DNA of 64,000 bases, from assembly GCF_009834535.1 (NCBI RefSeq), contig NC_045696.1:1054001-1118000 (forward strand), written 5' to 3'. Below are positions 8,639-54,614 of this stretch, piece after piece. A program made the position numbers and the translations under genes. The stretch's first letter is position 1; the number at the start of each line of letters is the position of its first letter. The stretch is from Camelus ferus. Taxonomy: Eukaryota. The notes beneath the pieces are model-generated. The model saw only the letters and a list, made by a program, of their open reading frames with translations, made no database searches and was not told the DNA's origin.

Positions 8639-11047
8639 CTGAACGCAGAGGGAGAGAAAGGTCCCCAGGGGGCCGGGGGCAGGAGGCACAGGGTGCAGGC
8701 GGCTGGCAGCCGGGCCCATCTGAGGGCGACTCCAGCAGTGACGTCACTACTCCCTCGTCACCACTGTCAGCGGCACGTGCTCCCAGCCCCGCGCTGGTGC
8801 CAGGACCCGGCGCTGCAGGCGTCCGTGGTCTTGTTGCAGGGGAAGGTGTTAGGGGTGTGCGGTGCACCCAGGTAGGACAGTGAGACCAGGGCGGGCGGAT
8901 GGTGTCCCCGCAGGCCAGGAGGTAGACGCGCTGAGTCGGGGGAGACCAGCCTGTTGTTACACCTGGGCCAGCGCAGACGCTTGTGTCCAGAGCCTAGCCT
9001 GCCTGGCAGGTCCCTCTCGTACGCTCATGCCCCGCCAGACGTAGCTCCATCCTGGCCTCCCCCAGGCTCCTTCTAACCCGAAGGACCGCTTTGGGTGGGT
9101 GCTGAGAGAGCATCCAGCAGGCACGGGGGCCCCTGGGCCCCGGGTAGACCCCAGGGCCAGAAGCCTGGCTGCAGGTGGGAGAGGCCACCCGGGTCTGGAG
9201 CTCCGGTCTGCAGAGGGGCAGTGCCCCAGCCACGAGGAGGGGATTCGGCCAAGGGCAGTGGCTGCCTTGTTCGACAGGTACGTGTCCTTCCTCCCTGGAA
9301 CCCTGGGATGCTCCGACCACCACGGAGGGCGTGTGGAGGGTGTGCGTGGGAGAGCACGTAAGTGTGCGTGTGCGCGAGCACACGTGTGGGGAGCTGCAGG
9401 CCAGGAGCGGGAGTCCTGCAGTCAAGCCCCCACCCTCCTGTGTGGGCAGCACCCTCCCCCCCACCGTCCAGGCTCCAGGAGCGCCCCCGCCCACGGGGAG
9501 CGCAGGCCACACCAGACTGAAGAACGAGGGTGGCCTCTGGGCTCAGGTGGGTCAGCACTCGCTTCATGCTTGGGATGCAAATTCTCAGCCCACCCAGCTG
9601 TACTGAAAGAGGAGCAGGGCGGCCCCAGGTGACAGTTACCAGGCCTGAGAACCCCAGGGAAGTCCCGAGGGGCCAGATACTAAAGTTCTAGAAAGCCACA
9701 CTCTGAAGCTCCCCTGGGGGCACCTGGTCTGTGGCCGTGACTGGGTGGAGGGCACGAGGCTCCTAGCAGGTGGGGGTCAGGGTGCCCGACATCTGTGCAT
9801 GACTGTCCCCACACAGACACTGTCCATGAGGCTCTGAACTTCCGGCAGGCCAGGCCCACTGCAAACGCAGGCCAGCAGGGCTCCGGCCCCCAACACCGCC
9901 TGCCTGTGCAGCCGGAGGTCTCCCGAGGACACGGTGAGCTGGGGAGATGCCAGGTGCACAAAGGCCACGAGGGCCCTTGGCCCCTTGCAAACACTGACGG
10001 ACTTGGAACCAGATGTTATGAAATCCAGACCGTTTGAAATGTGTCCCGTCACTGCCCTGCTAGGGCGACTGGTCTTAAAAGTTGTGTGCAGACGATCAGA
10101 GCCTGAGAAAGCCCATCTCTGGTCACTGGTGTTGGGGCCACCTCCCAGGGACCTCGGCTCTGGGGACCTCCGACCCACCCCTCCTGCTCCGTCTGGAAGG
10201 GCTGTGTCCTGGGTGGGAGCTGCTGCACTCCTGGGCCCACCTTGCTCCTCCCTCCTCTGCTGGCTGACCCCCGGGTTGGCCCTACCCCAGCTGTGGGCCA
10301 CACTGTCACTGTCCCATCTCCTTTACACTTCCTGTACCAGCCTCGACGATTTACGTGAAACTCTCTTACAAGCACCTTTCCCCCCATTCCTCCGTCCCAT
10401 TAAGTCAGGAAATTACACAAATGCTGCAGCACTGTGACCAGGTTACACTACTGGTACGTGCGGCTCCAGGTGGCCGAGAGCGCCAGGGACAGGGACCTTA
10501 GTGCCCCGAGCTGCCCCTCAGTCAGGAACAGCAGGTCTGCCGTGGCTGGACTTGGGGGCCACAGAGGGAGGTCTGGGGGCAGGGTCAGAGGGGGCTGGCA
10601 CTTTCCCTGCCTGCTCCACACGACCAGTCCCGGCACCGAAACTGCCCAAACCCAGCGCGGCTGGTGGGCACCCTCTTGGCTTCAGGGGTCCAACTGGCTC
10701 ACTTCTTACAGAACGTGGCCAACAAAGCCACCTGCTAAGGAAAACTCGTAGCCTCCAGCACCCTCGTGACAGAACAAAGCAGTGCGCGGTCACGGCGAGG
10801 CGCACGGCCGCAGTGCAGGCCCCGGAAGGCCAGGCCACGACTCTCGTCCCCAAGCGCCTTCCTGCCCCTGGCCCAGGACAGGGGGTCCCAAGGGGTCTCA
10901 ATAAACAGACAACTGAACCAAACAGAACCTGGGTAAAGAGGAAGGTAGTTCCATGTCAAGAAAAGTAAACAAGAAAGAGGAAACAGGGACACTTTCAAGA
11001 AAGAGAATCAAGTCAAAAAAATTGAACTACAGAGTACGTGAAAAAGT

Positions 11048-11070
11048 AAAAAAAAAAAAAAAAAAAAAAA
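11048..11070. repeat. Poly(A) tract (A23)
   Basis: Direct read, within an A-rich stretch. Confidence 0.9.
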
Positions 11071-11789
11071 GGAGTTTGCTGACCACTGAAGAAGAGTTGG
11101 AAGCAATGTTCTGAGCAAAATGTTGCAATGACTGGGTGGAATTAGGGATTTCCCAACAGACACTTCTTACCAAACTGACTCAAGAAAAAGAATGAACCTT
11201 GAACAAGGTCGCGCAGACGTTGTTCTGGTGGCAGAACACAAAGGACCTGCAGGGACGTGGGGACCGGCGCTGGGCTGCGGGGTGGGCTGCGAGCTGGGCT
11301 GTGGGGCCGGGCGGTGGGTGGGCGGCGGGCCAGGAGGTGGGCGGGCTGAGGACCGGGCTGCGGGCCGGGTGGTGGGCGGGCGATGGGCTCGCCACTCGTC
11401 TCTGCCAAGGCTTACAAACCACACACGGGAGCGACTCTCTCCCAAGAGCCTCGCCTCAGAAAGGTGGACCAGCCTTGTGCTAAACCCACCTCGTCCCGGA
11501 CCCCCACCTCGGAGACAACATGGTTCTCCTCCCACCTGGCCAGCAGTCTGACCGAACACCCACAGGGGTTCTGAAGCATGAGTGTGCGGGGCCGTGAGGA
11601 GCCCGGCCACACGGCTGGGAGTGGCACACGTGAAATGTGCAGCAGCGCCCACGGGGGCCCAGCTGGAGCCAGACAGAAGGGCCTGGCAGGCCTCTGCTTC
11701 TCTCCTAACCTTCAGCAGTTTTTCTGGGTGTCTTCTCCAGGCCGGATTTAACCACATAGACACTTAAAATGTCCCAATGGTTTAAAAAA

Positions 11790-12040
11790 AAAAAAGACAA
11801 GGTGAAAAAGCAAATGAAAAACTGGGAAATAAAATTTGCAGCAAGCGTGAAAAACAAACGATCAGTGTCTTTCATACGTAAAGAGTTCATACAAACCAAT
11901 AAGAAACCGAACCCATTAAAACAAACACACACAGAATGTAATAAACAGGCCAGTCACAGAGGAAGAAATACAAATAGCCAGTAAACACATGAAGTAGTAA
12001 AGTCTGCCTTCACTGACAACCGAGAGATGCAAGCTAGAGC
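11790..12040 (+). mobile_element. Old L1 ORF2 3' fragment
   Basis: A-rich; actgggaaataaaatttgca and acagaggaagaaatacaaatagccagtaaacacatgaag match the WEKIFA and EEIQMANKHMK segments. Confidence 0.7.
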
Positions 12041-13447: not shown

Positions 13448-13992
13448 CTGGAACTTGTCGGGGTCCGCTCGGCCAGCCTGAGCCACGAAGACGCGGGCAC
13501 CGGGCTCCAGCTGCAGGCCGCGCAGGGAGCGCGCCAGGGGCTCGCGCTGGACCAACTCGCAGTCCACGAAGAGCGCGGCGTGCGCGCCGTCCACGCTGAG
13601 TGCCAGGCGCGTCCAGCGCTCGTCCAGCGCGGGCAGCGCGAAGCTGGCGGCCGTGCGCGTGCGGGCGGCGCCGGGCTCCGTGTACAGCAGCTGCACCTGC
13701 TGCTGCCCGCCGCGCGCCGCCGCCAGCTTGACGCCCACCGAGACCACCGCCTGCGCCGCATCGGTGACAGCGAACAGCACGCCCGCGCGCGCCGAGGCCG
13801 GCCGCACGCGCGCCAGCAGCGAGAAGTCGCGGAACAAGGCGCCGGGCAGGAGGCTCTCGGCCGCCTGGCCGCCGCCGCTCTCCGGGCCGAACTCGTAGGC
13901 GGGCCCCACGTCGGGGTCGTGCACCAGGGCGACCTGACGGGGCGGGGGCTCCCCGAGCAGCTGCTGGAGCCCCACCTCGAAGCCTTCCCTGT
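13448..13992 (-). CDS. COL18A1: Exon 4 (545 nt): TSPN / laminin-G-like domain, first exon common to all isoforms
   Basis: Acceptor tctttctctcctgcag|AC; donor CAG|GTAATC; peptide [13 protein letters not shown]...[12 protein letters not shown]...[10 protein letters not shown]...FVDCE...DPDKFQ. Confidence 0.97.
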
Positions 13993-14360
13993 CTGCAGGA
14001 GAGAAAGACACCAGTGAGGCCGCGCGCCACGGCGGAAACCGAGGCGGGCTGCCCTCCCGCCCGCACCGTCCTGCTCCCCTGCAGCGCCAGCAGGGACTCG
14101 GCGGCTCCCCACAACCCGCGTCCATCCAGGCGCTGCGCAAGGATACGGCTGCCTTGAGCCCCGCGCCCTCCCGCACCGGCTCAAGGCCGCAGGTGGGGTA
14201 CAGCAGATCCTCGGAAACCAGCGCGGTGGGAAGCGCAGCGGCAGGCCAGGCCAGCTCAGCGACCCGACCCCATTAGCACAAGGAACCCACGCACACCCCA
14301 CATTCAGACCCACGGCTCACTCCCATCCTCTTGCTGCAACCCCACACTCGTGCTTGGACG

Positions 14361-14498
14361 CCGCCCCTATCCCATGCTGGGACCCCGCCCCCATTCCGTG
14401 CTCGGACCCCCGCCCCCATCCCATGCTCAGACCTCGCCCCCATCCCCATGCTCGGCACCCCATGCTCGGACCCCGCCCCCATCCCCATGCTGGGACCC
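14361..14498. repeat. Minisatellite, ~24-26 bp unit ccccgcccccatcccatgctcggac, about 5 copies
   Basis: Directly visible tandem units with small variations. Confidence 0.85.
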
Positions 14499-16189
14499 CT
14501 AGGAGAAATGCCCCTGGCACTGGTCCCCGCACCCCCGCCCACCCCAACCCCACCACACCCCAGAGAGACTGCACACAGGATGTGCCCTGAGCTGTGTCTA
14601 CACTAGCAACAGCCCCAAATGAACAAAACCCCCAGGAAGGGAGGTGGTGAGCGGGGCTGCGGTTCTAGGGGCCCTGTTTAGCCCGTGTCTTCCTTGTCTG
14701 CTCACACTCGTCACAGCAGACCCCACCCAAGCCCCCAGTCTGGGGGGGTTTTACCCGGCAGCGGCTGCCTCACAAGGCTCCTGGGAGGTGGGGCTCCTCG
14801 CTGCCTCCGCCCACAGCAGATGCCACGGCCACCTGACCAGATGGGGCTGCATGATGGGTGACCCAGGAGGGCCCCGCTTTCCCCGTAACCAACTGCTCAC
14901 ACTCCCGGCCCCATCCTCCCTCTCCAATACCCGATGGGCTCTCCTCCCCCTCCTCCTTGGTCGTCAGAGTCCTGGGGCCCCCACCATAGGCGCCCCCTCC
15001 GCAGTGTGGGCCCAGGCTCGGCTATGGTGCCCAAGCTGACCGAGCGCCTGGACCTGGCTGAGCCGTGGGTGCAGCACAGGGTGGGCTGCTTCCTAGGCGT
15101 GCAGGGGCCACTAGCAGCCTGCATCGACATCCTGGGGGTTCTGACGATCTCTGGGACCAGGGGTGTCCAAGGTTGGGGGGGGAGGACGGGGCCTACCTCC
15201 CTGTCTGGGGCTGAGGCCACTGCCAGACACAGGAGAGGGATAAACCCAACTCAGGGAGAGGCCTGCCCACCAGCGCCCTCCCTGAATACCTGTGCTGCCA
15301 GGCAGAGCTGTGATTTGGGGCGTGGTCTGGCCACGGGCCCCACAGAGGCCTCTCCTCAGAGGACCTCACCCACAACCTTGGAGGCGGGCACACGGGGAGA
15401 TGCCCTCCTGGGAAGCGGCTGCTGGCGTGTGGCTGTCCTGAGGAAGGCTCGGCTGAGCCCGAATGTGAATGTACTCGACGGTGTCAGTGTGTCAGCACGC
15501 GTCAGTGTCAGTGGGCACCCGGAGCCGGGTCCCAAGTGTGGGGTCAGGTGGGTCTGGTCCCTCCCGGGACAGAGCAGAGGGGACAGGTGCTGACCCCGCC
15601 TTCAGAGCCCCGGCCGTCCATCAAGATGCTGGCTGCTTTGGGTCCCTTTGCGTAAGGAGGGCCCAGGGCCCAGGTGGCCGCCCAGGAGAGGCTCTGAGAT
15701 CTGGAAACAGGACTATCGCCAGCCTGGGTGCCAGTGGCCCTGGCGTCCCGACTCAGCTATCCCCAGAGTTAAACCTGGATGTGCCTCAGCACCGCCCTTC
15801 CTCCCAGGCAGCCTGCACTTTTCCAAATCAATTAAGAACGCGAGACGCAGCAGCCGCTGACATCCTGGGCTGGAAGACAACAGCGCATTCCAGGGGCAGC
15901 CCCAGGGACCCCAGAGAGGCCTGAGCAGCTCCTCTCCCAAGTTCTCCGGTTTCCGCTCCACAAAATTCTTCATGGTTCCCTTCGGGAGTAAGCGACCGAA
16001 TGCCGCGGCCCTAAGATCACCGGTCCACCCTCCGGTTACAGGCATCCCGAGCGGGGCCGTGGGCCCCCCGCCCGCCAGCCTGGCAACGGCTCTGCCGGAG
16101 GCGCAGCCCCCAGACCACGGAGTCGGGGCGTGCCTCGCTGAAGACAGTCTCCTTTCAGCAAACAGGCCAGCCACGACCAGGGGGGCTTG

Positions 16190-18360
16190 AGCCCGGGTCC
16201 ACAAGGCTGGTTCAGCATTTGACGATCGATTCCCGTCGTCACATCAACAGGCTAAAGAAGAAAAACCACACGGTCATAGCACTAGACGCAGAAAAAAGAC
16301 TGTATAAACTCCAGCATCCATTATGATGAACGCTCTCAGTAAGCTAGGAATGGAGGCTGTCTACAAAACACCTGCAGCTGGCACCATACTTCATGGTGAG
16401 AAGCTTGACGCTCTCCCGCCGAAACCAGGTACAAGAAGCAAGGCGGCCCTCCCACTGCGTCCTTTCAACATCCTGCTGGAGTTCTAACCATCGTGAGACA
16501 AGAAAAGGGAAGGAAAGCACACAGACTGTGAAGGAAGAAATAAAACAAATAGTTTGTAGACGACATGAAAACCCAAATGGAGAAACTCCAAAATGATGGC
16601 CTAGAAAACACTCCTGGATGAGCAATGACGGGGGGTCGTGGGGCACGAGGTGACTGTACAAAGCCAAGCATTTCCCTACAAACCAGCGATGAAGCCAGAC
16701 ACACACACCACTTACCCCAGCAGCCCCACGATGACATGCTTGCTTCCACCTACAGTGGGTGTAAATACAACAGCCGCCTGCACAAGAGCTGCACGAGGAA
16801 ACCTGCGGGACTGATGAGCAAACCAAAGAACTACAGGGATGCGGAGGGGTCCCACGTTCACGAACAGGACTCAGTGTCGTCCATGCGGTGCTGCTAAAGG
16901 AACAGGCGAACAGACGAGTGGAACAGAACAGAGAGCCCAGAAACAGACCCACTGGAACACAACTAGCTAATCTTTCCTAAAGAAGCAAAGGCAATACAAC
17001 GCGGAAAAGACTGGCTTTTCAACCAGTGGTGCTGGAACAACTGGACACTACGTGCAGAAAAAGCAATGAATCCAGACACAGACCTCCCACCCTTCACAAA
17101 AATTAACTCACAGTGGGTCACAGGCCCAAATGTAAAATGCAAAACTGTACAGCTCCTGGTAGGTAACGGGGAGAAGCCCTGGATGACCTGGGGTTCGGCA
17201 GCGACGTTTTAGACAACGTCACAGACACGACTCACAACAGGGCTGACATGCGAGGCTTCCTTAAAAGGAAAAGCCTCTGTTCTCCAGAGGACACTGAGGA
17301 GGATGAAAAGACAAATCACAGGCTGGGAGAAAATATTTGCCAAACACCGGTTAGATAAAGGACTGTTAAGCCAAATGCATAAAGGACACTTAAAACTTTA
17401 AAATAAGGAAGTGAGGAGCCCAATTAAAAGTGGGCAGAAGATCTGAACAGACGCCTCATCAAAGACAGCTGGACGCAAATAAACGCACGGAAAGGTGCTC
17501 CACGTCCGACGTCGCCGGGAAATGCAAATTAAAAAAATGAGTTACCACGACCCACCTCGTAGAAGGGCCAAAAGCCAGACGCCGACAACACCCAGTGCTG
17601 GTGAGGACGGGGAGCCACAGGAACCCCCAGGCCCTGCCGGTGGGAACGCAGCACCGTGCAGCCTGCTTTGGAAGACAGCTGGGAGCTTCTTACAAAGCTA
17701 AGCGCACTCTGACCGTAGGACCCAGCAACCAGGCTCCTGGGTGTTTCCCCAAAGGAGTCGTGCATGAAAACCTGCACACAGACATTTCTAGCAACTTAAT
17801 TTGACAAAACTTGGAAGCAACCAAGATGTCTTTTCCTCAGTAGGTGAACGGATAAATAAACTGTGGTCCATCCAGACAGTGGAATGCTATTCAGCACCGA
17901 AAAAGAAGGGATTAAGTCAAGAAGACATTACTAAGAAAGAAGCCAGTCTGAATAGACTACAAACGACATGATTCCAACTTTACAACACTCTGGAAAAGGC
18001 AGAACTATGAGAGAGTGAAAAAAGAAACAGTGGTCTCCAGGAATTGGGGCGGGGGAGGGAAGAGCAGGTGGGGCACCGAGGGTCTGCAGAGCGGTGAGAA
18101 CACTGTGCGTGGCACTCACGGTGGCCACATGTCACGGCACATCTGTCAAACCCGCAGAGCGTACAGCGTCAGGAGTGAGCCCTGGTGTGAACCATGGGCT
18201 CTGGGCAATGCCGCGCCACTGCAGCTTCTCCAACAGCCACGAAGGCCCGTCTGGCGGGGCTGCTGGTGGCGGCGGGCAGGAGGGGTTCGGGCACTCTCTG
18301 TACCTTGCCCTCAAGTTTGCTGTGAGCCCAAATCTGCTTTTAAAAAAATAAACTCTTCTT
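16190..18360 (+). mobile_element. Degenerate L1 (L1MB/L1MC-type): ORF2 RT region to 3' end, with internal deletion near 16880
   Basis: aaggctggttcagcatt...aaaaaccacacggtcatagcactagacgcagaaaaa (GWFN...KNHMIISIDAEK), tggaacagaacagagagcccagaaa (WNR.ESPE), aaacttggaagcaaccaagatgtc, and a 3' terminus tttgctgtgagcccaaatctgcttttaaaaaaataaa. Confidence 0.9.
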
Positions 18361-22290: not shown

Positions 22291-22542
22291 ACTGAGCTAT
22301 CTAAGAGTCATGGAGGGTCTGCCATTGACACACACGGAACCTCTGGTCTCAAGCATGCCTCCCACCCTCCCCAGACCTCAGCCTCCCCCTGCAAAGTAGG
22401 CATCACACCCCCTGCAGGCCCCTGGGGTAGCAGCAACACTGGGGGCCGGGTGGGGGTCCTCTGTGCCGAGTGCACACAGCCCCGGCCGAGCTCGTCTGGC
22501 TGGGCCAAGAAGAAAGGCAGATGGACCAGGCCGGCCGGTTAC

Positions 22543-23291
22543 CTGCAGCTGGCCCAATGAACACGCAGTGCCCGTCCTCCCGGGCCGGGAGCGAGGTGCA
22601 GGTGACCGGCAGCCCGCCCCCGTCCAGGTGGCTCCAGCACGCGTCCTCCAGGGCCTCGCAGAACTGGCGGCAGGGCGGCGGGGCGGGCAGCGGGCTGGCG
22701 CTGCAGGGGGGGGCCAGCAGCAGGCAGAAGAACCAGGCCAGGAAGCGGTGGCAGTGGGTCTGGAGCAGCGCCCCCCAGGCCCGGGCCGCGGCCTGCACCT
22801 CCTCGCCGCTCGCGTGGTGGAGGTGGTTGGGCAGCCAGGCGCGCCCGATGCCCAGGTGGCCGCAGACCGCCAGGGAGGGCGGCAGGGGCAGGCAGCGGCC
22901 GGCGGCAAGGCCGACAGGCTGCCCGGCGGGGGTCAGCGGGTCAGCCCCGAGCAGCGTGGAGCTGTTAGCGAGACCAGGCCCCACAGAGGCAGCCACGTGG
23001 GGCAGCCCAAGCACCAGTGCCCCTGATCAGAGCTGAGAGGAGGATGTGAGACAGCTTGGCGGGGGGCCCCGAGGAGAGAGCCGAGGGGGCAGCGTGCGCG
23101 CCCAGGGAGCCCATCACCAGGGGAGGCGGAGGCGGCGTGCGCTCGCGGACGTCGGGGTGCCGGTGCTGCTGGCCTAGGGTGGGCCGCCATGGGCAGGAGT
23201 CCTTCGCTGTCCAGATCCCAGGGCTGCCCCAGGGCCTGCCGGCTTCCCCAGGGAGGGGCCCCGCCTGGCGCGGAGGAGAGGGAAGTTCTAC
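22543..23291 (-). CDS. COL18A1: Exon 3 extension specific to the long isoform, including Frizzled cysteine-rich domain (~22560-22900); frameshifted twice in this sequence
   Basis: RCLPLPPSLAVC...THC...FFCLLLAPPC...PPCRQFCEALEDACW...VTC...GHCVFIG has 10 Cys; donor GCAG|GTAACC at 22542. Homologous peptide is spread over three ORF-track frames (22933..24066, 22965..23423, 22403..23014). Confidence 0.9.
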
Positions 23292-23952
23292 CTGGCGACG
23301 GCGGGGGCACCAAGGTCTCCCTGAGTGGTGCCCAGGGCCCGCCTGGGGAGGGCGGCGGCTGGGTGGGCACTGGCAGGGTGCTGGCCTCGGTCCTCTGGGT
23401 GTCCGGAGAGCTTGGGGCCTCACTGTTCAGCCAGAGAGCGATCCAGTTCTCCTGGGGGGCGCTGGGAAGTCCAGGGGTGGTGAGGGGTTCCGTGGGCGTC
23501 ACCAGAGCGGGCGTCCCCGCGCTGCTGGAGCTCTCGGTGGGGGCGGTGTCGCCCCACAGCCGGACGAAGCTCCGGATGCCCTGGGCCACGCTCAGGATCT
23601 CGGCTCCAACGCCAGCAATGTTGTCCCCCTTTGCGTCCGGGCTTGCGGTGGGGGCTGTGGGGGCTGGGGAGGTCCAGGCCTGGCCCGCCTCCAGCATCTC
23701 CAGAGGCAGCTCAGGGCTGGCAGGGGCTGTCCCCTGCTCAGCGGGGCCATCCTGGGGGACCACGTGCGTGGTGGTGTCCTCTGTGGGCGGCACAGGCGAG
23801 CTGCCAGGGGGCACAGAGGCCAGTGCAGCCGTGGGCTCAGCAGACTTAACGGACCACAACCATCCTATCAGGTCAGCCCGGGCGGCCGCGAGGCAACAGA
23901 TGAGCAGCAGCAGACCCCAGGGGCCGCGCCAGCCGCTGGGGTCGGGAGCCAT
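23292..23952 (-). CDS. COL18A1: Exon 3, medium-isoform part (661 nt): second signal peptide MAPDPSGWRGPWGLLLLICCLAAARA plus Pro/Ser/Thr-rich DUF959-type region
   Basis: ATG at 23952; CCLAAARA and NIAGVGAEILSVAQGIRSFVRLW resemble collagen XVIII long/medium N-termini; internal donor CCAG|GTAGAA at 23291 (phase 1, matches exon 4). Confidence 0.93.
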
Positions 23953-24850
23953 CGGGCTGTGTGCACCGCAGAGCAGGAGCAGCGGGCCGCCTCTGCCGTC
24001 CGGAGGTGGGGCCAGCCCGCTCCGCCTCCCGCCCACAGGCCGGCAGGCAGCTCCCCATTCACACATCTGGGTGGCTCCTCCTCTTCCCTCTCCCTCCCAC
24101 GGGGGGAAGACAGACAGGAGCCTCCACCCAAGGTGCTGGGCACACTTGAGAACCTCTCACATCTCCTTAAAGCAGCTGCAGACCCCTGGGGCCAAGGGGC
24201 ACAGACAGCATGCAGTGGGGGGTCCCACCTCCCTCCCCTGGGGCTGGAGGAGGCCCTGGGCCTCGCAGACTGCCGCCGAGTCCCTGCGCAGGCGCCTGGG
24301 CACAGGGGCTCCCAGCCAGCACCCTGGTCAGTCCCCTGGGGTGGGGCAGGGGCTCCTGGGTGCTCTGAAGCTTTGAGGAAGAGCTCCCTCCTCTCTCTGC
24401 AGCCTGCAGGGCCTGGCACCGAGAGAAAGCGCCTGGCACAGCCCCACAGGACATCTGCCCTGGGCAGGCCTGGGACCCTCAGGACACCGCGCGAGCCCCC
24501 AGCACACCCCGCCCATGGCCCTCTGCACTTGGAGCCGCTCTGACCGAGAACAGCCCGGAAGCCTGGCCATGGGCCACCACTCTGTGGCCAAATTGGAACT
24601 GAAGCAGCTCGACTTGCGGCAAGTCCGTCCTCCTGTCCCAGCTGTCCCACCAAGTCCGAGAAGCTGCGCGGGCGCTCGGTCCCTGGCCCCCGGGGGCCTA
24701 CTCAGAGCTGCCCAGCCCCAGCCGGCTCCCCTGCAGACGCCCGGCCTGCCCTCCCTTCATCTCACCGGAGACCACCCGCTGGCTGGGAGTGTTGGCCTCT
24801 TTTCCTGTTTCACTCCTCAAACACACTCAGAGGCACGGGTCCTCTGTCTC
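23953..24850 (-). promoter_or_regulatory. Internal promoter P2 / 5' UTR region for medium and long isoforms
   Basis: Inferred from position upstream of the exon 3 ATG and signal peptide, and from the known two-promoter structure of COL18A1. TSS cannot be placed from sequence. Confidence 0.6.
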
Positions 24851-31327: not shown

Positions 31328-32349
31328 ATTTTTTTAAAATTGAAGTTTAGTTGATTTACAATATTGTGTCAATTTCTAGTGTATGGCACAGTGATTCAAT
31401 CATACACGTGTATGTTTGTTTTCATATTCTTTTCCATTATGGTTTATTACAGGATATTGAATGTAGTTCTCCGTGCTAGACAGTAGGATTTGTTACCTAT
31501 TTTATATATAGTGTATCTGTTAATCCTGAACTCTCAATTTATCCCTTCCCACACCCTTTTCCCTCAGTAACCATAAGTTTGTTTTCTACGTTTGTGAGTC
31601 TGTTTCTGTTTTATAAGTATAAGTTCATTTGTATCATTTTTTTTCAGATTCCACATGTAAGTGATACCATGATATTTGCTTTTCTCTGTCTGCCTTTATT
31701 TAGTATAACAATCTCCAGGTCCATCCATGTTGCTGCAAATGGCATTATTTTATTCTTTTTTATGGCTGAGTAGTATTCCATTGTGTACATACACCATATC
31801 TTCTTTATCCAGTCATCTGTCAGTGGACATTTAGGTTGTTTCCACGTCTTGCCTGTTGTAAATAGTGCTGCTGTGAGCATTGGGGTGCAGGTGTCTTTTC
31901 AACTAGAGTTTTCATCTTTTCAGGATATGTGCCCAGGATTGGGATTGCTGGATCAAATGCTAAGTCTGTTTCTAGTTTTCTGAGGAAACTCCATACTGTT
32001 TTCCGTAACGGCTGCACCAAACTCCACTCCCACCACATTGGGAGTGGGTGTAGGAGGGTTCCCCTTTCTCCACATCTTCTCCAGCATTTATTATCTGTAG
32101 ACTTTTTGACGATAGCCAGTGTGAGGTGGTACCTCGTTGTAGTTCTGATTTGCATTCTCTAATAATTAGTGATACTGAGCATCTTTTCATGTGCCTGTTG
32201 GCCATCTGGATGGTATGTCTTCCTTGGAGAAATGTCTATTTCGGTCTTCTGCCCTTTTTTGGTTGGGTCGTCTGGTGTTTCGTTGTTGCTGTTACTGAGT
32301 TGCATGAGCTGATTCTGTATGTAGGAAATTAAGCCTTTGCCAGTCACAA
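31328..32349 (-). mobile_element. Younger 5'-truncated L1 (ORF2 C-terminus + 3' UTR + tail), nested
   Basis: ORF 31644..31880 TAALFT.GKTWKQPKCP.TDDWIKKIW..YTMEYYSAIKKN; T-tract at 31329; flanking direct repeat ggaatgatgcca (31316-27) / ggagtgatgcca (32350-61). Confidence 0.92.
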
Positions 32350-33105
32350 GGAGTGATGCCACCGTAACGCCGTCTCCCAATTCATAAACATGGAATGTTT
32401 TCCATTTACTCTGATCTCCCTTATTTTCCCTATACATCATTTCTTAGTTTTCAAAATATGTATTTTGCACTTCTTTGTTACATTTATTCTTAGATATTTT
32501 ACTTTTTGATGGTTTTGTAAATGAAATTTTTCCCTTAATTTCATTTTTCAGTTGTTCATGGCAAGTTACCAAGAAACACAACTGGTTTTTTATGTTGCTC
32601 TTGTATTCTGCAACCTTTCTGTGTTTATTCATTAGTCTGAATAGTTTTTTACTGGATTCCTTAGGACTTTACATGTGTAAGATTGTGTCACTTGTGAAGA
32701 GTACAGAAGTGCTGAGAGGGGACAGACGTCCCTGTCTGGTCCCCGATCCGGGGCGGGGTGGGGCAGCCTGTCACTGGGGAGGGCGGTGTTAGGCCGGGGC
32801 TTTTGGAGATGCCTTCTGTTGGCTTGAGAAAGTTCCCTTTCTATTCCTAGTTTGTTGAATGTTCCTACCATGAAGAGGTGTTGGATTTTTCCAGCGCCTT
32901 TGCTGTGTATATCGACACGACTGTGTGAGTTTCATTTTTTATTCTTCTGACTGACATGGTGTAGTACATTAACTTTCAGACACTAACTTGCATCCCAGAA
33001 CAAAGCCCACCGGTCACCGTGTGCGTTTCCTTCTGCGTTGCTGGATTTGGCTTGCCAGTACTTTAAGGATTCTTGTGCTCGCGTCATGTGCGATATTCGT
33101 CTGTG

Positions 33106-33144
33106 GTGTGCGCGCGCGCGCGTGTGTGTGTGTGTGTGTGTGTG
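33106..33144. repeat. Compound (CG)6(TG)11 microsatellite
   Basis: gtgtg cgcgcgcgcgcg tgtgtgtgtgtgtgtgtgtgtg. Confidence 0.9.
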
Positions 33145-33452
33145 ATGTCTGTCTAGTCTTGGTAACCAGGTAATACTGGCCGCACAAAGTAAGTGGGCAA
33201 GTGCTCCGCCGTCTCTTTTCCGAAAGAGTTTGTGAGGAACTGGTTTTGATTCTTTAAATGGTGAGATTCAGCAAGGAAACAGGGCCTTCTTCATGGGGAG
33301 TTTTTGGATTATTAACTCAATCTTTTCGTTTGTTACGGATCTATTCAAACCATCTATTTCTTACAGAGTTTTAGTAATTTGTACCTTTCTAGGAATTGGT
33401 TCATTTCATCTAAGTTATTTAGTTTGCTAACATACTGCTGTTCATAGTATTG

Positions 33453-35250
33453 GGTCAGAACACTGTGTAAGGTCGGAATAAAGCTGGAGGAACCACGCTT
33501 CCCAATTTTAGAACTTACTACGATGCTAAGTCACCAAGACAGCACATCACTGGCACCAAGGCAGATAGATCAATGAAATAGGATTGAGAGTTTTGAAATA
33601 AATTCCCGCATATAGTCAACTGATTTTTGACAAGCACACCAAAACTATCCAGTGGGGGAAAAACAGGATTTTCAACAAAAGGTTCTGGGACAATCGGACT
33701 GTCACAGACAAAAGAATGAAGTTAGACCCTTATCTCACACCATATACAAAAATTTAACTTAAAATGGATCAAAGGGCTAAATATAAGAGCTAAAGCTGTT
33801 AAAGTCTTAGGAGAAAACATGGGAATAAATCTTCATGACCCTGGGTTTGACAAAGGAGTCTTAGATATGACACCGAAAGCCTCAGCAACAGAGAAAAAAT
33901 AGGTAAATTGGACTTCATCAAAGCTGAACACTTTTTCACTTCAAAGGACACCACAATAAAGTGAAAAAAAAAACACACAGAATGGGAGAAATTATTTGCA
34001 AATCACATACCCAGTAAGGGTTGTGCGTCTAGAATACAAGAAGAAATCCTACAACCCAACAATAAACAGACAAATCGTCCAGTTTTTTAAAAACAGGTGG
34101 AGAACTGGAATAGACACTCCTCAGTGAAGCCCTACCATGGCCAGTAAGGCACGAAATAACGCTCGCTGCCATCGGCCATCAGGGAGGCGCCACTGAGAAC
34201 CACAGCGAGACACACTTCACACCCACTAGGATGGCTGGAACCAAAAAGCTGCACCAAGCGGTGGACTGACGTGGAGAAGTCACGCCCTCATCCTCTGCTG
34301 GCAGAAGTGTCAGACGGGGCAGCCACGGGGGAAACAGTCTGGCAGGTCCTCAAATGATTAACCAGTTACCCTACGTCCCAGAAATCTCCCTCAAGGTGTA
34401 TACCAAAAAAACCGAAAGCACATCCACACAGAAACTTGTGCACAAAAGTTAATAACAGCACATTAGCCCAAACGTGGCACAACCCAAGTGTCCCTCAACT
34501 GCTGAATGGATGCAGGAAGGCGGTCCATCCGCACAGCGGAATATGACTCAGCCATGAAAAGGACCTTGAAATCACTGTGCTCAGGGAGAGAAGGCAGACA
34601 CAGAGGTCACATACTTACAATCCCGTTTACATGAAATATACAGACAAGGAAATCCACAGAGCATAGATTACTGGCTTGGTTAGAGCTGGGGTGACAGCTA
34701 AAAAGGTTTCCTTTGTCACTGAAGGGTAGTTGCTGTACCATGCTGTATGTTTCAGGAGTCGCAATTTTTAAAGGTTGTACACTTTATAGTTATTATTAAA
34801 GACTGGCTGTGCCCCAGGGGCACATTATACCCTTGTAGCTGACTTTGTGCCTAGTAGCTTGCAGGCTCTCACTCCCCCACTCCTGCTGCCACCCCCCCAC
34901 CCCCCGCCGGGAACCACTGATTTGTTCTCTGCGTCTGTGAGTCTGCTTCTTTTTTGTTGTATTCACTAGTTTAGCTGTATTTTTTGAGATTCCACACATA
35001 AGTGATGCCATACAGTGTCTGTCTTTCTCTGTCTGGCTTATTTCGCTGAATACAAAGCCCTCCGAGTCCGCCCGTGTAGTTGCAAACGGCGAAATAAAGG
35101 CTGCTTTTTCGAAGTGATAGGAATGTTCTACAACGCACCGTGTGCTGATGGCTACCCACGTCTCTGAACATACTAAAAACCACTGAATCGAAACACTGGA
35201 GGTTAGCGAGTTTATGGCACGTGAATTATAGCTCAGTAGAACTGTTGGGA
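33453..35250 (+). mobile_element. Sense 3' segment of the old L1MB-type element
   Basis: Begins at aaagctggaggaaccacgcttcccaattttagaacttactac (KAGG.TLP.F.TYY) and ends with an L1MB-like terminus tttatggcacgtgaattatagctcagtagaactgtt. Confidence 0.88.
34712..35095 (-). mobile_element. Second nested L1 3'-end fragment
   Basis: aaccactgatttgttctctgcgtctgtgagtctg...gagattccacacataagtgatgccatacagtgtctgtctttctctgtctggcttatttc; the host L1 3' UTR resumes after it. Confidence 0.8.
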
Positions 35251-35837
35251 ACAAGAGCTGAGGGGACTGCCATGCTGTTCAAACCGCACAGTCCTGATGG
35301 CTGCTTCATTTGCATTTATTTGTTAGTGAGATTGATGTTTTCAACACATTCAATGAAAGTATTTCTTTCCTTTATAAATTCCTAGGCACTTTTACTCATT
35401 TTTAGGACTGATAAAAGGGAGGATTTGCAATTTTTAAAAAGCCGAGGATATGGACACTGCTGTCTTTGCTGCTAACGGTGTTTTTCAAGCTTGCCACAAG
35501 CCTCTCACAGAACACAGGGCCTCACGTTTAAGGGGCTTCGAGTTCTCCAGCTCACAGTGTGCGCACCGGGGCCTCTTGTGGTCCTTGACGCCCTGCACCC
35601 CGCTCTGCAGCTCCTCACTGACACTCACCGGTGCTCACTCTGCACGAGGCGGGTGGCTGTCACACTCCGGCCCTGGGGACCGCCAGCCTCTCTGCCATCC
35701 TGCACCATGTCAGGAGCCGGGGTGGGAGGTGGGCACCCACTGGCCGGCGCGGGGAGCAGGGACCCTCCCGCTCAGGGCCCAACCCGGAGCCACATCCCTG
35801 TGCGTTAATTCTTCACCTGGTTCGTGGGGACACAGTC

Positions 35838-52562: not shown

Positions 52563-52632
52563 GCACAAGGAGCGTCTCCTGCAGACCCCTGCCCTCAGCA
52601 CAAGGAGCATCTCCTGCAGACCCCTGCCCTCA
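52563..52632. repeat. 35-bp tandem duplication (1 mismatch)
   Basis: gcacaaggagc(g/a)tctcctgcagacccctgccctca x2. Confidence 0.9.
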
Positions 52633-52828
52633 GCCCAGGCCCAGGGTGAGGAAATCCGCTCTCCCGACATCAGGGCTGCCCCTCACGAGGCGGCCTCGTA
52701 AACTCACGTCCTGGGTGAGCGCGGCCGGGAAACAGGAGCAGCTCCGGCCCGAACGGCCCTTCCGAAGGGGCACATCAAGGCACGGGGACTGTTTCTGCTG
52801 GAAGACGAGGGCAAAGGTCAAATCACAT

Positions 52829-52860: not shown

Positions 52861-53850
52861 GCGGAAGCACATGTGGGTTCTAGAACGTTCTGCCAGCCAA
52901 CTCAGTCCCGAGGAACGGCACGTGTCCACCGAGGAAACGGGCGGAGGGGGTGCAGAGGGTGAGGAAAGGGGCGAGAGAATACCGGGGGCCTGGCCGGGGG
53001 CCAAAGTCCAATCAAGTGGGCGGGTGGGGGGCTCCAGCTGTAGAAGTCAGCCACTCACTGTCTGCTAGCCAGTTAGGACTCAAAACCCAAGTCAACCAGC
53101 ATGGACTTGCTGAGCGGGAGCTGGGGCTGAACAGACCATGGGGACCAGGCCGTGAAGGACGACGGGGTCCCCCAGAACCATCAGGCCCTGCCCAAGGCCC
53201 TGGATCCCAGCAGAGCAGTGTGCCTTGCCCCCCCCGCCCCCCCCACCCCTGAGGAGGAGCCGCTCAGACTCCCCCAGAGTCCCCTGAGGCGCCCGCCACG
53301 AAGTGACCTTTGGGCTGGGCCAGCCCTGATGCTCCTGAGATGGCCCACAGGCCTATATAGGGCCCGGGGGGGCCTGTCCACTTCCGCGGGTCAGGGGACA
53401 GGGTCCTGGGCAGAAGACCCCCCTCGCTCCCGCCAGCAGCCCCCACCCCCAGACGCCAGGCCTGCGGGAGCCAGGCTGAGCTCTCAGCCACATGCTCTGC
53501 CTGGATGTCCCTCTGCTCATGTCAAACGCAAGACATCTCAGAGAGGCCCCTGTGCCAGAGGCAGCTGACAGCATCCGACACATGGAGGCAAACGAAGATG
53601 CAGGTTACCCGTCAGGACCCCGTATCACAGACTGTCCAGTTTGGCCGTTTTCGTAAGTTAGCCCAGTCTGGCCACCAGCTCCCACTGGGCATCAGAGGTC
53701 TCGGCACCAGATAACTAAAGGCCCACCACAGCACCCCAGGTGGCTGAAGGCTGATGAGCACTGGTCCACTTGACAAGCACTGAGTCCTGTCCACCTGCTC
53801 AGCACCTGGTCAGCTTTACTTTACAGAACTCTTTCTGGGGCTCACTGGGG

Positions 53851-53960
53851 CACTGGGCTGCACCGGGCCGCACTGGGCCACACCGGGCTGCACCAGGCTG
53901 CACGGGGCCTCACCGGGCCAAGCTGGGCTGCACCGGGCCACACTGGGCTGCACCGGGCCG
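53851..53960. repeat. 10-bp tandem repeat cacygggcyr x11
   Basis: cactgggctg caccgggccg cactgggcca caccgggctg ... in exact 10-nt register. Confidence 0.9.
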
Positions 53961-54614
53961 CGCTGGTACTTTCTAAGAATGTGCTTTTGTGCCACTCGCC
54001 TCATTCTCCAAAAATAGAACAAAGCGAGTCTCTGTCTGACCTTGTAGACAATGACACCTGCCCCCGCCCTGTGAGGGCCTGGCCGGCCTTGAGTCCCAGG
54101 AAAGCCCCCAACACACGGCCGCCTCACCCGCAGGCCCGTCCAGGCACTCTCCGGCCACCCACTGGCATGGCCTGACCCCCGCTCACTTGCTCTCTGCCTT
54201 CCTCCCCTGTCCAAGCTTCCTGTCCCTTCACTGGGGCCCGAGACAGCCCCTCGGCAGCCGGCCGGAGCCCGGCCCCAGCATGTCCAAGCCCCTGGCTGCC
54301 ACCCGGGGGCATGCGGAGGTCATGCTGGGTGCCTGAAAACAGGGGTCCTATGACCGCTGAAAGGTTCCTAGGACAGGGTCGTCTAACTTCTGCATGGAGA
54401 GCCCACAGCCCAGGGATGCTGGGTGCACAGGACAGAGAGTTGACCCTTGGGCCTCAGGGGTCAGGAAGGATACTCCAGGGGTCCTGCATGGGGGTGGCGG
54501 TCCCAACGCCTTAGAGCATATCAGAGGTTTCACACTGCGGTGAAGCAGCACTTCGCAAGTGAGAGCGTTTGCCGTTCCCATAACCCCACCCCTTTCAGAG
54601 ACCTGACCACACAT

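Follow-up and report, generated by a model that had tools for sequence, protein, structure and literature searches.

Collagen XVIII follows a three-isoform scheme and binds Wnt3a, as described in published accounts (PMC2270346; bioRxiv 10.1101/2021.03.08.434365). Wnt binding by the Frizzled domain is known from human and mouse only (PMC2270346, PMC10216475), and Wnt10b is given as bound by the Frizzled-containing domain (review PMC10216475). These sources link the long form to Wnt binding and, jointly with the medium form, to the accrual of fat and to triglyceride levels in plasma (PMC10216475, PMC2270346); Col18a1 P2/P2 mice, in which the medium and long forms are gone (original Aikio 2014), show reduced adiposity and raised triglycerides according to the review's summary (review PMC10216475). 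Because the mouse alleles described in these papers remove medium and long together, they do not isolate the role of the long form (PMC10216475, PMC2270346). On the side of sequence quality, one report shows for older Sanger/Illumina assemblies that false indels cluster in GC-rich 5' exons (PMC9516821).

The locus described here resembles V3C18 (long isoform, variant 3, FZC18) in having a second-promoter exon 3 with a DUF959/MUCL-C18 region, a linker and a 10-Cys cysteine-rich domain (CRD), an internal donor that leads to the medium and a distal donor that leads to the long isoform, and a TSP1-like exon next; it differs in that its frame is broken twice in the linker and, as written, stops before the CRD. 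These two frame breaks are present in the sequence and touch the long isoform only. The Frizzled-bearing form would thereby be gone as in Col18a1 P2/P2 mice, but the mouse allele, in the review's account, takes medium and long, whereas a real camelid lesion would take long alone. The locus also resembles the false-indel cases of PMC9516821 in having short indels within the GC-rich 5' coding exon of a gene that is conserved otherwise; those errors were proven by read mapping in older Sanger/Illumina assemblies, whereas here the errors are predicted from the sequence. Our preferred reading, to which we give a probability of about 0.68, is that the two extra bases would be consensus errors of the assembly and that the animal would have a normal three-isoform COL18A1; the odds of this and of every other reading below are our judgement and not a computed posterior. 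A literature search covering titles and the opening of abstracts, in a collection with few subscription papers, listed no camelid COL18A1 lesion and no frameshift of the long isoform.

Gene layout and the three isoforms

We identify the window (the whole stretch of 64,000 nt that was analysed) as the 5' part of camelid COL18A1 on the minus strand (Table 1). The N-terminus of the exon-3 protein matches DUF959/MUCL-C18 in Pfam (PF06121, E 1.6e-58, residues 16-198), and exon 4 matches PF13385 at E 8.7e-05, a hit under the curated Pfam cut-off. In a tree of the exon-3 protein from the window and 25 chosen orthologs, with X put at both breaks, the window branches as sister (support 86/95) to a group that unites one cluster with whales (Pontoporia) and ruminants (Bos mutus), which is the position of a camelid.

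Table 1. COL18A1 features of the window, in window coordinates.
Feature	Position	Strand	Remarks
Exon 1, short isoform	63043-63033	-	CpG-rich island
Exon 2, short isoform	62933-62839	-	CpG-rich island; open into exon 4
Exon 3 coding part, long isoform, ATG to distal donor	22543..23952	-	1,410 nt; phase 1 calls for two fewer
Medium/long common part	23292..23952	-	661 nt, open; N-terminal hydrophobic leader (by eye) and DUF959/MUCL-C18
Internal donor GT, medium isoform	23290..23291	-	phase 1; medium splice product open
Break 1, one extra base	23169..23183	-	best placement 23175-76, then 23173-74
Linker between breaks	23007..23174	-	second frame, colinear with orthologs
Cryptic 3' splice-site-like stretch	23023..23050	-	branch-point-like A 23047, pyrimidine tract, AGs 23034-33 and 23024-23
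Break 2, one extra base	22999..23008	-	23003-23008 indistinguishable, scores 185-187
Frizzled-type CRD	22544..22894	-	third frame; 10/10 Cys; 64/65 conserved columns kept
Distal donor GT, long isoform	22541..22542	-	intact
Exon 4, TSP1/laminin-G-like domain	13448..13992	-	phase-1 acceptor, open
Nine further common exons	8638-8543, 7766-7707, 5974-5845, 2739-2663, 2266-2081, 1800-1774, 655-593, 486-400, 81-28	-	all AG/GT, in frame

Counted from the ATG at 23952, exon 3 reaches 661 nt, or 3n+1, at the medium donor (last base 23292), and exon 4 begins at 13992 in phase 1; at the long donor (last exon base 22543) the count is 1,410 nt, or 3n, where phase 1 requires 1,408. The medium (662 aa) and short (477 aa) isoforms are open through all 10 common exons of the window, openness being judged to the last of these, beyond which the remaining COL18A1 lies. 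As written, the long product ends after 339 aa at the TGA at 22935-33 (minus strand), before the Frizzled CRD and 390 nt upstream of the long donor, and no single open frame connects the exon-3 ATG with the CRD and exon 4. By the 50-55-nt rule of nonsense-mediated decay (NMD), the long transcript as written is a predicted NMD target. The first-pass annotation had assigned the gene to COL18A1, set out the same isoform logic and placed the premature stop ahead of the CRD; all of this agrees with what we find.

Apart from the frame, exon 4 is very CpG-rich (15.7 per 100 nt; GC3 0.95), and the protein it encodes resembles the two nearest clusters at 83-84% and most other mammals at only 60-65%. 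Further upstream in exon 3, an ATG at 24066 lies in frame with the exon-3 ATG at 23952 (24066-23953, minus strand) and gives a 377-aa ORF; the ORFs of several orthologs likewise extend upstream of the exon-3 ATG, with similar residues.

Two single-base insertions in the exon-3 frame

We scored frame models against 22 chosen orthologs, comprising 21 of the 45 matches of the CRD-frame search described below and one cluster member. A model with two separate +1 events scored 330 and the best single -1 model 177, which bears out the earlier claim that exon 3 is broken twice. A length of 1,410 nt is also one base short of 3n+1, so that the frame could in principle result from the loss of a single base (net -1), or from some other set of compensating indels, instead of two +1 insertions; given the lower score and a middle frame that aligned to orthologs across 56 residues, we consider the chance of this almost negligible. 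At each break +1 also outscored -2 and +4, and on this ground the latter two events were ruled out at both sites.

The positions of the extra bases are less sharply defined. For break 1, placement at 23175-76 scored 170, followed by 166 at 23173-74, 161 at 23177-79 and 160 at 23183. Most orthologs read AARPGQQH here, and AARPG is the reading in the pig-like, whale and ruminant rows; this agrees with one substitution and an extra T or A at 23176-75. Placement at 23181-83, where the first-pass annotation had put the insertion, requires two residue changes and does not yield AARPGQQH; its site for break 2, at 23006-08, lies in the indistinguishable interval. That annotation had further argued for a sequencing error on the ground that both insertions lengthen homopolymers. 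The placements do not bear this out: the best placement of break 1 is outside any run, and the second best lies in the 2-base run 23174-73, where extension of the run is possible at the cost of one more substitution and is not favoured; the placement of break 2 is ambiguous. Since break 1 is best placed outside a homopolymer the argument is weak, and since a 3-base run lies within 5 nt of 53% of the positions in the break segment, it would be of little weight either way.

Conservation of the long-only sequence

A protein search with the CRD frame gave 45 matches among 3,062 candidates, the best at 86% identity; all 45 match proteins carry DUF959 and the Fz domain (PF01392 CRD) in one ORF, a property for which the search selected. 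The window CRD aligned with these PF01392-bearing orthologs, at up to 86% identity, with 10 of 10 cysteines. Ten or 11 cysteines were counted in 41 of the 45 orthologs, and the low count of one of the other four, P0046, is a trimming artefact. Sixty-five columns are conserved in 90% or more of the orthologs, and the window departs from them at one; over the same columns 24 of the 45 orthologs have no change, 9 have one and 12 have more. The identity of the window CRD to the consensus, 0.889, is joint ninth of 46.

We also compared the window with five intact artiodactyl rows by mean identity to 11 non-artiodactyl outgroups, and obtained 0.847 vs 0.785-0.833 for the CRD and 0.633 vs 0.519-0.630 for the long-only linker. 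Residues unique to the window number 4 of 89, 3 of 41 and 3 of 117 (the CRD) in the long-only blocks, vs 13 of 194 in the common part. Outside the two breaks we found no stop in the ortholog-matching frames, no lost cysteine and no lost donor. By these measures the linker and the CRD are as conserved as in intact artiodactyls, with no sign of decay, and the argument from the intact CRD made in the earlier annotation (10 Cys and the donor) is not only sound but extends, by the outgroup identity, to the linker.

With one conserved change in 145 non-synonymous sites, neutral drift can have reached no more than about 0.03-0.04 substitutions per site, so a loss cannot date from the camelid stem. 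We therefore rejected a long-standing loss on that stem, with which the undecayed CRD and linker disagree. Our tests of relaxation are at protein level only; as such they speak, on these sequences, against an old loss and not against a recent one.

Assembly error and recent loss

A broken part that has not decayed makes error more likely than real loss, and the ranking of the two in the first-pass annotation survives on this evidence (linker and CRD undecayed, one of 65 conserved columns changed). We think that the frame breaks are probably not in the animal itself. Two false single-base insertions would have arisen in the consensus of exon 3, a GC-rich exon (71-76% GC; exon 4 has 76%) of the type in which false indels cluster in older assemblies (PMC9516821). 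The true exon 3 would then measure 1,408 nt and be spliced in phase 1 from its distal donor to exon 4; the long isoform, with leader, DUF959, linker, Frizzled CRD, TSP1-like domain and collagen, would be produced as in other mammals. Such an error would amount to a warning only: the exon would be liable to mis-annotation, or to a "lost" call, in comparative studies of camels.

The competing account is a recent real loss of the long isoform only, in which one insertion would have inactivated the Frizzled-bearing transcript by predicted NMD and the second base would be a later neutral hit or an assembly error. The lesion might have gone to fixation in camels or be carried as an allele by the assembled animal, and the short and medium forms would retain their basement-membrane and plasma roles. 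Two properties of the breaks count against error and for this account. Both fall within the 749 nt of the long-only part while the 2,092 other coding nt of the window, exon 4 included, are clean, a confinement that had not been weighed before and that has p ~0.07 under uniform errors, a value to be read with the site chosen post hoc and errors known to cluster; and the best placement of break 1 is off a base run. The long form is also, according to PMC2270346, a low-level transcript in human tissues.

Damage to the CRD in three of the 45 ortholog records (P0045, P0048 and P0047) points the same way, although these may be errors too. In P0045, which has 17 members, two CRD cysteines are gone, leaving 8, and 8 of the 65 conserved columns are changed; in P0048 the start of the CRD is missing; and P0047, an NCBI record of Pongo abelii, has a frame shift inside the Frizzled CRD with 7 cysteines left in the aligned span. 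The domain may thus be labile, or the exon may be error-prone in other records also. P0047 is a second assembly with a break in COL18A1 exon 3, whether by error or in reality. P0038, which is similar to P0045, keeps 10 cysteines and is changed at 6 of the 65 conserved columns, and P0045, P0038 and P0048 may point to other mammal lineages in which the Frizzled domain is truly decaying.

Recent loss has to contend with linker and CRD that show no relaxation and with a long-only part that holds no further stop, lost cysteine or lost donor. At indel-to-substitution ratios of 0.07-0.12, the chance that another neutral frameshift arose while no more than one conserved position changed has a maximum of 0.15-0.21, or of 0.03-0.04 where that frameshift has to be a +1 insertion. 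A second neutral hit takes time, and this together with the lack of relaxation favours error. We judge a recent loss to be unlikely on balance. If it were true, camels would offer a natural knockout in which just the Frizzled-bearing form is missing, and the separate role of the long form would become testable in an animal with unusual fat storage.

A cryptic acceptor upstream of break 2

The first-pass annotation allowed for loss or error and missed a third outcome, in which a cryptic acceptor at 23024-23 gives an open CRD-bearing frame from the sequence as written. A pyrimidine tract and two AGs sit ten to twenty nt upstream of break 2. With an acceptor matrix made from the window's own 11 acceptors, AG 23034-33 scored 7.8 bits and AG 23024-23 8.1 bits, at about the 98th percentile of the 4,471 minus-strand AGs (8.1 being the 97.8th); both values are inside the range of the 11 true acceptors in leave-one-out scoring (5.0-15.5 bits), and the branch-point-like A lies 25 nt upstream of the in-frame AG 23024-23. 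Joining the medium donor to AG 23024-23 removes a 269-nt intron that includes break 1, and since break 2 is present the product is in frame with the CRD and the later exons, with 822 aa open to the last exon in the window. The medium donor joined to AG 23034-33 is, as written, out of frame and stops at 242 aa. Between the medium donor and the CRD there are 15 further AGs, which were discarded: some are out of frame, and those in frame are weak and sit upstream of both breaks.

Both bases could on this account be real and common to camels, with a Wnt-binding CRD isoform rebuilt through the predicted medium donor to AG 23024-23 junction; about 89 linker residues would be lost, and DUF959, the CRD and everything downstream would be kept. 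It is to the credit of this scheme that a GT donor, a branch-point-like A, a pyrimidine tract and an AG jointly give an open frame, and that it would account for the intact CRD and for the break positions alike. We nevertheless find it quite improbable. The matrix was built on 11 sites, and the rival out-of-frame AG 10 nt upstream is about as strong (7.8 bits); a pair of AGs spaced 10 nt apart offers an in-frame site in two of three states, so that finding one is no more than chance predicts. As protein, moreover, the putative intron is undecayed, with an outgroup identity of 0.612 vs 0.495-0.630 in intact artiodactyls and the 4 of 89 unique residues given above.

An exitron is an intron inside a coding exon. 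The interval resembles one in that it is bounded by GT and AG, lies within coding sequence and, once removed, would leave a shorter low-complexity linker; it differs in being a predicted site pair only, of 269 nt, which is not 3n. If used, it would be a clear example of a new internal intron that makes up for frameshifts. In a sequence without break 2 the upstream AG 23034-33 is the in-frame one, and a linker-shortened long isoform is conceivable in other mammals.

Public runs and sequence collections

Among the public runs, 24 rows were listed, with rows at shares of 0.15, 0.10 and 0.00 left out here; 20 contain the queried stretch or part of it, and 18 contain half or more, from 8 studies. 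With up to 95% of its words present in public runs, the sequence belongs to a well-sequenced lineage. The top share among the listed runs is 0.95 of 187 words, reached jointly by 9 rows from 4 studies, which carry two organism labels and one metagenome label. None of the listed runs, then, holds all words, which weighs against a recent loss. A share of 0.95 leaves 9-10 words missing, and an isolated difference costs about 3.1 words, so that the ceiling fits about three (two to four) window-specific differences. The probability of losing 9-10 words is 0.004 for one difference and 0.12, 0.25 and 0.18 for two, three and four, respectively; two differences alone lose 9 or more words with a probability of 0.17. 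Two false insertions, as our preferred reading of an assembly error has them, would supply most of the word deficit, which is not locatable within the stretch. The ceiling could also stem from private or species-level SNPs, from contig breaks, or from words that the index does not serve.

Protein collections yielded no camelid copy, either to the CRD-frame query above or in three further searches: the 339-aa ORF had 32 matches (best 65%), the exon-4 protein, queried with 9 intron-read residues included, had 14 (best 84%; the window's own 328-aa ORF is below the 334-aa floor), and the middle-frame peptide had one, at 62%. An exact look-up found 0 of 10 window ORFs, nor the 339-aa ORF. The collections thus appear to be without a camelid copy in either state, and absence from them is uninformative. 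A metagenome scan with 221 pattern matches gave a single locus, which does not match the window at DNA level and is an unrelated gene of the Frizzled/LDL-repeat kind. In this locus (L001, JGI contig Ga0102689_1042610), an ORF combines a stretch of acidic repeats with a Cys pattern like that of Frizzled and with repeats like those of the LDL receptor, all labelled by reading.

Other features of the window

Rfam gave no match in 1-22300 or 24200-64000, the range scanned, and no tRNA genes were found in the window. No repeated SINE family emerged from the 64 kb: a self-BLAST gave two short matches only, and a search with SINE start motifs gave no convincing copy. An A-rich stretch at 10900-11075 (plus strand) ends with some 23 consecutive A at 11048, and another A run is found at 11784 (11760-11800); both are probably tails of old retro-insertions. 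Two AT-rich patches, at 16300-17900 and 31400-35300, have translations like broken C-terminal fragments on both strands, and we take them to resemble pieces of LINE-1 ORF2. Short GC-rich minisatellites, all intronic, occupy 14340-14499, 52563-52634 and 53835-53966.
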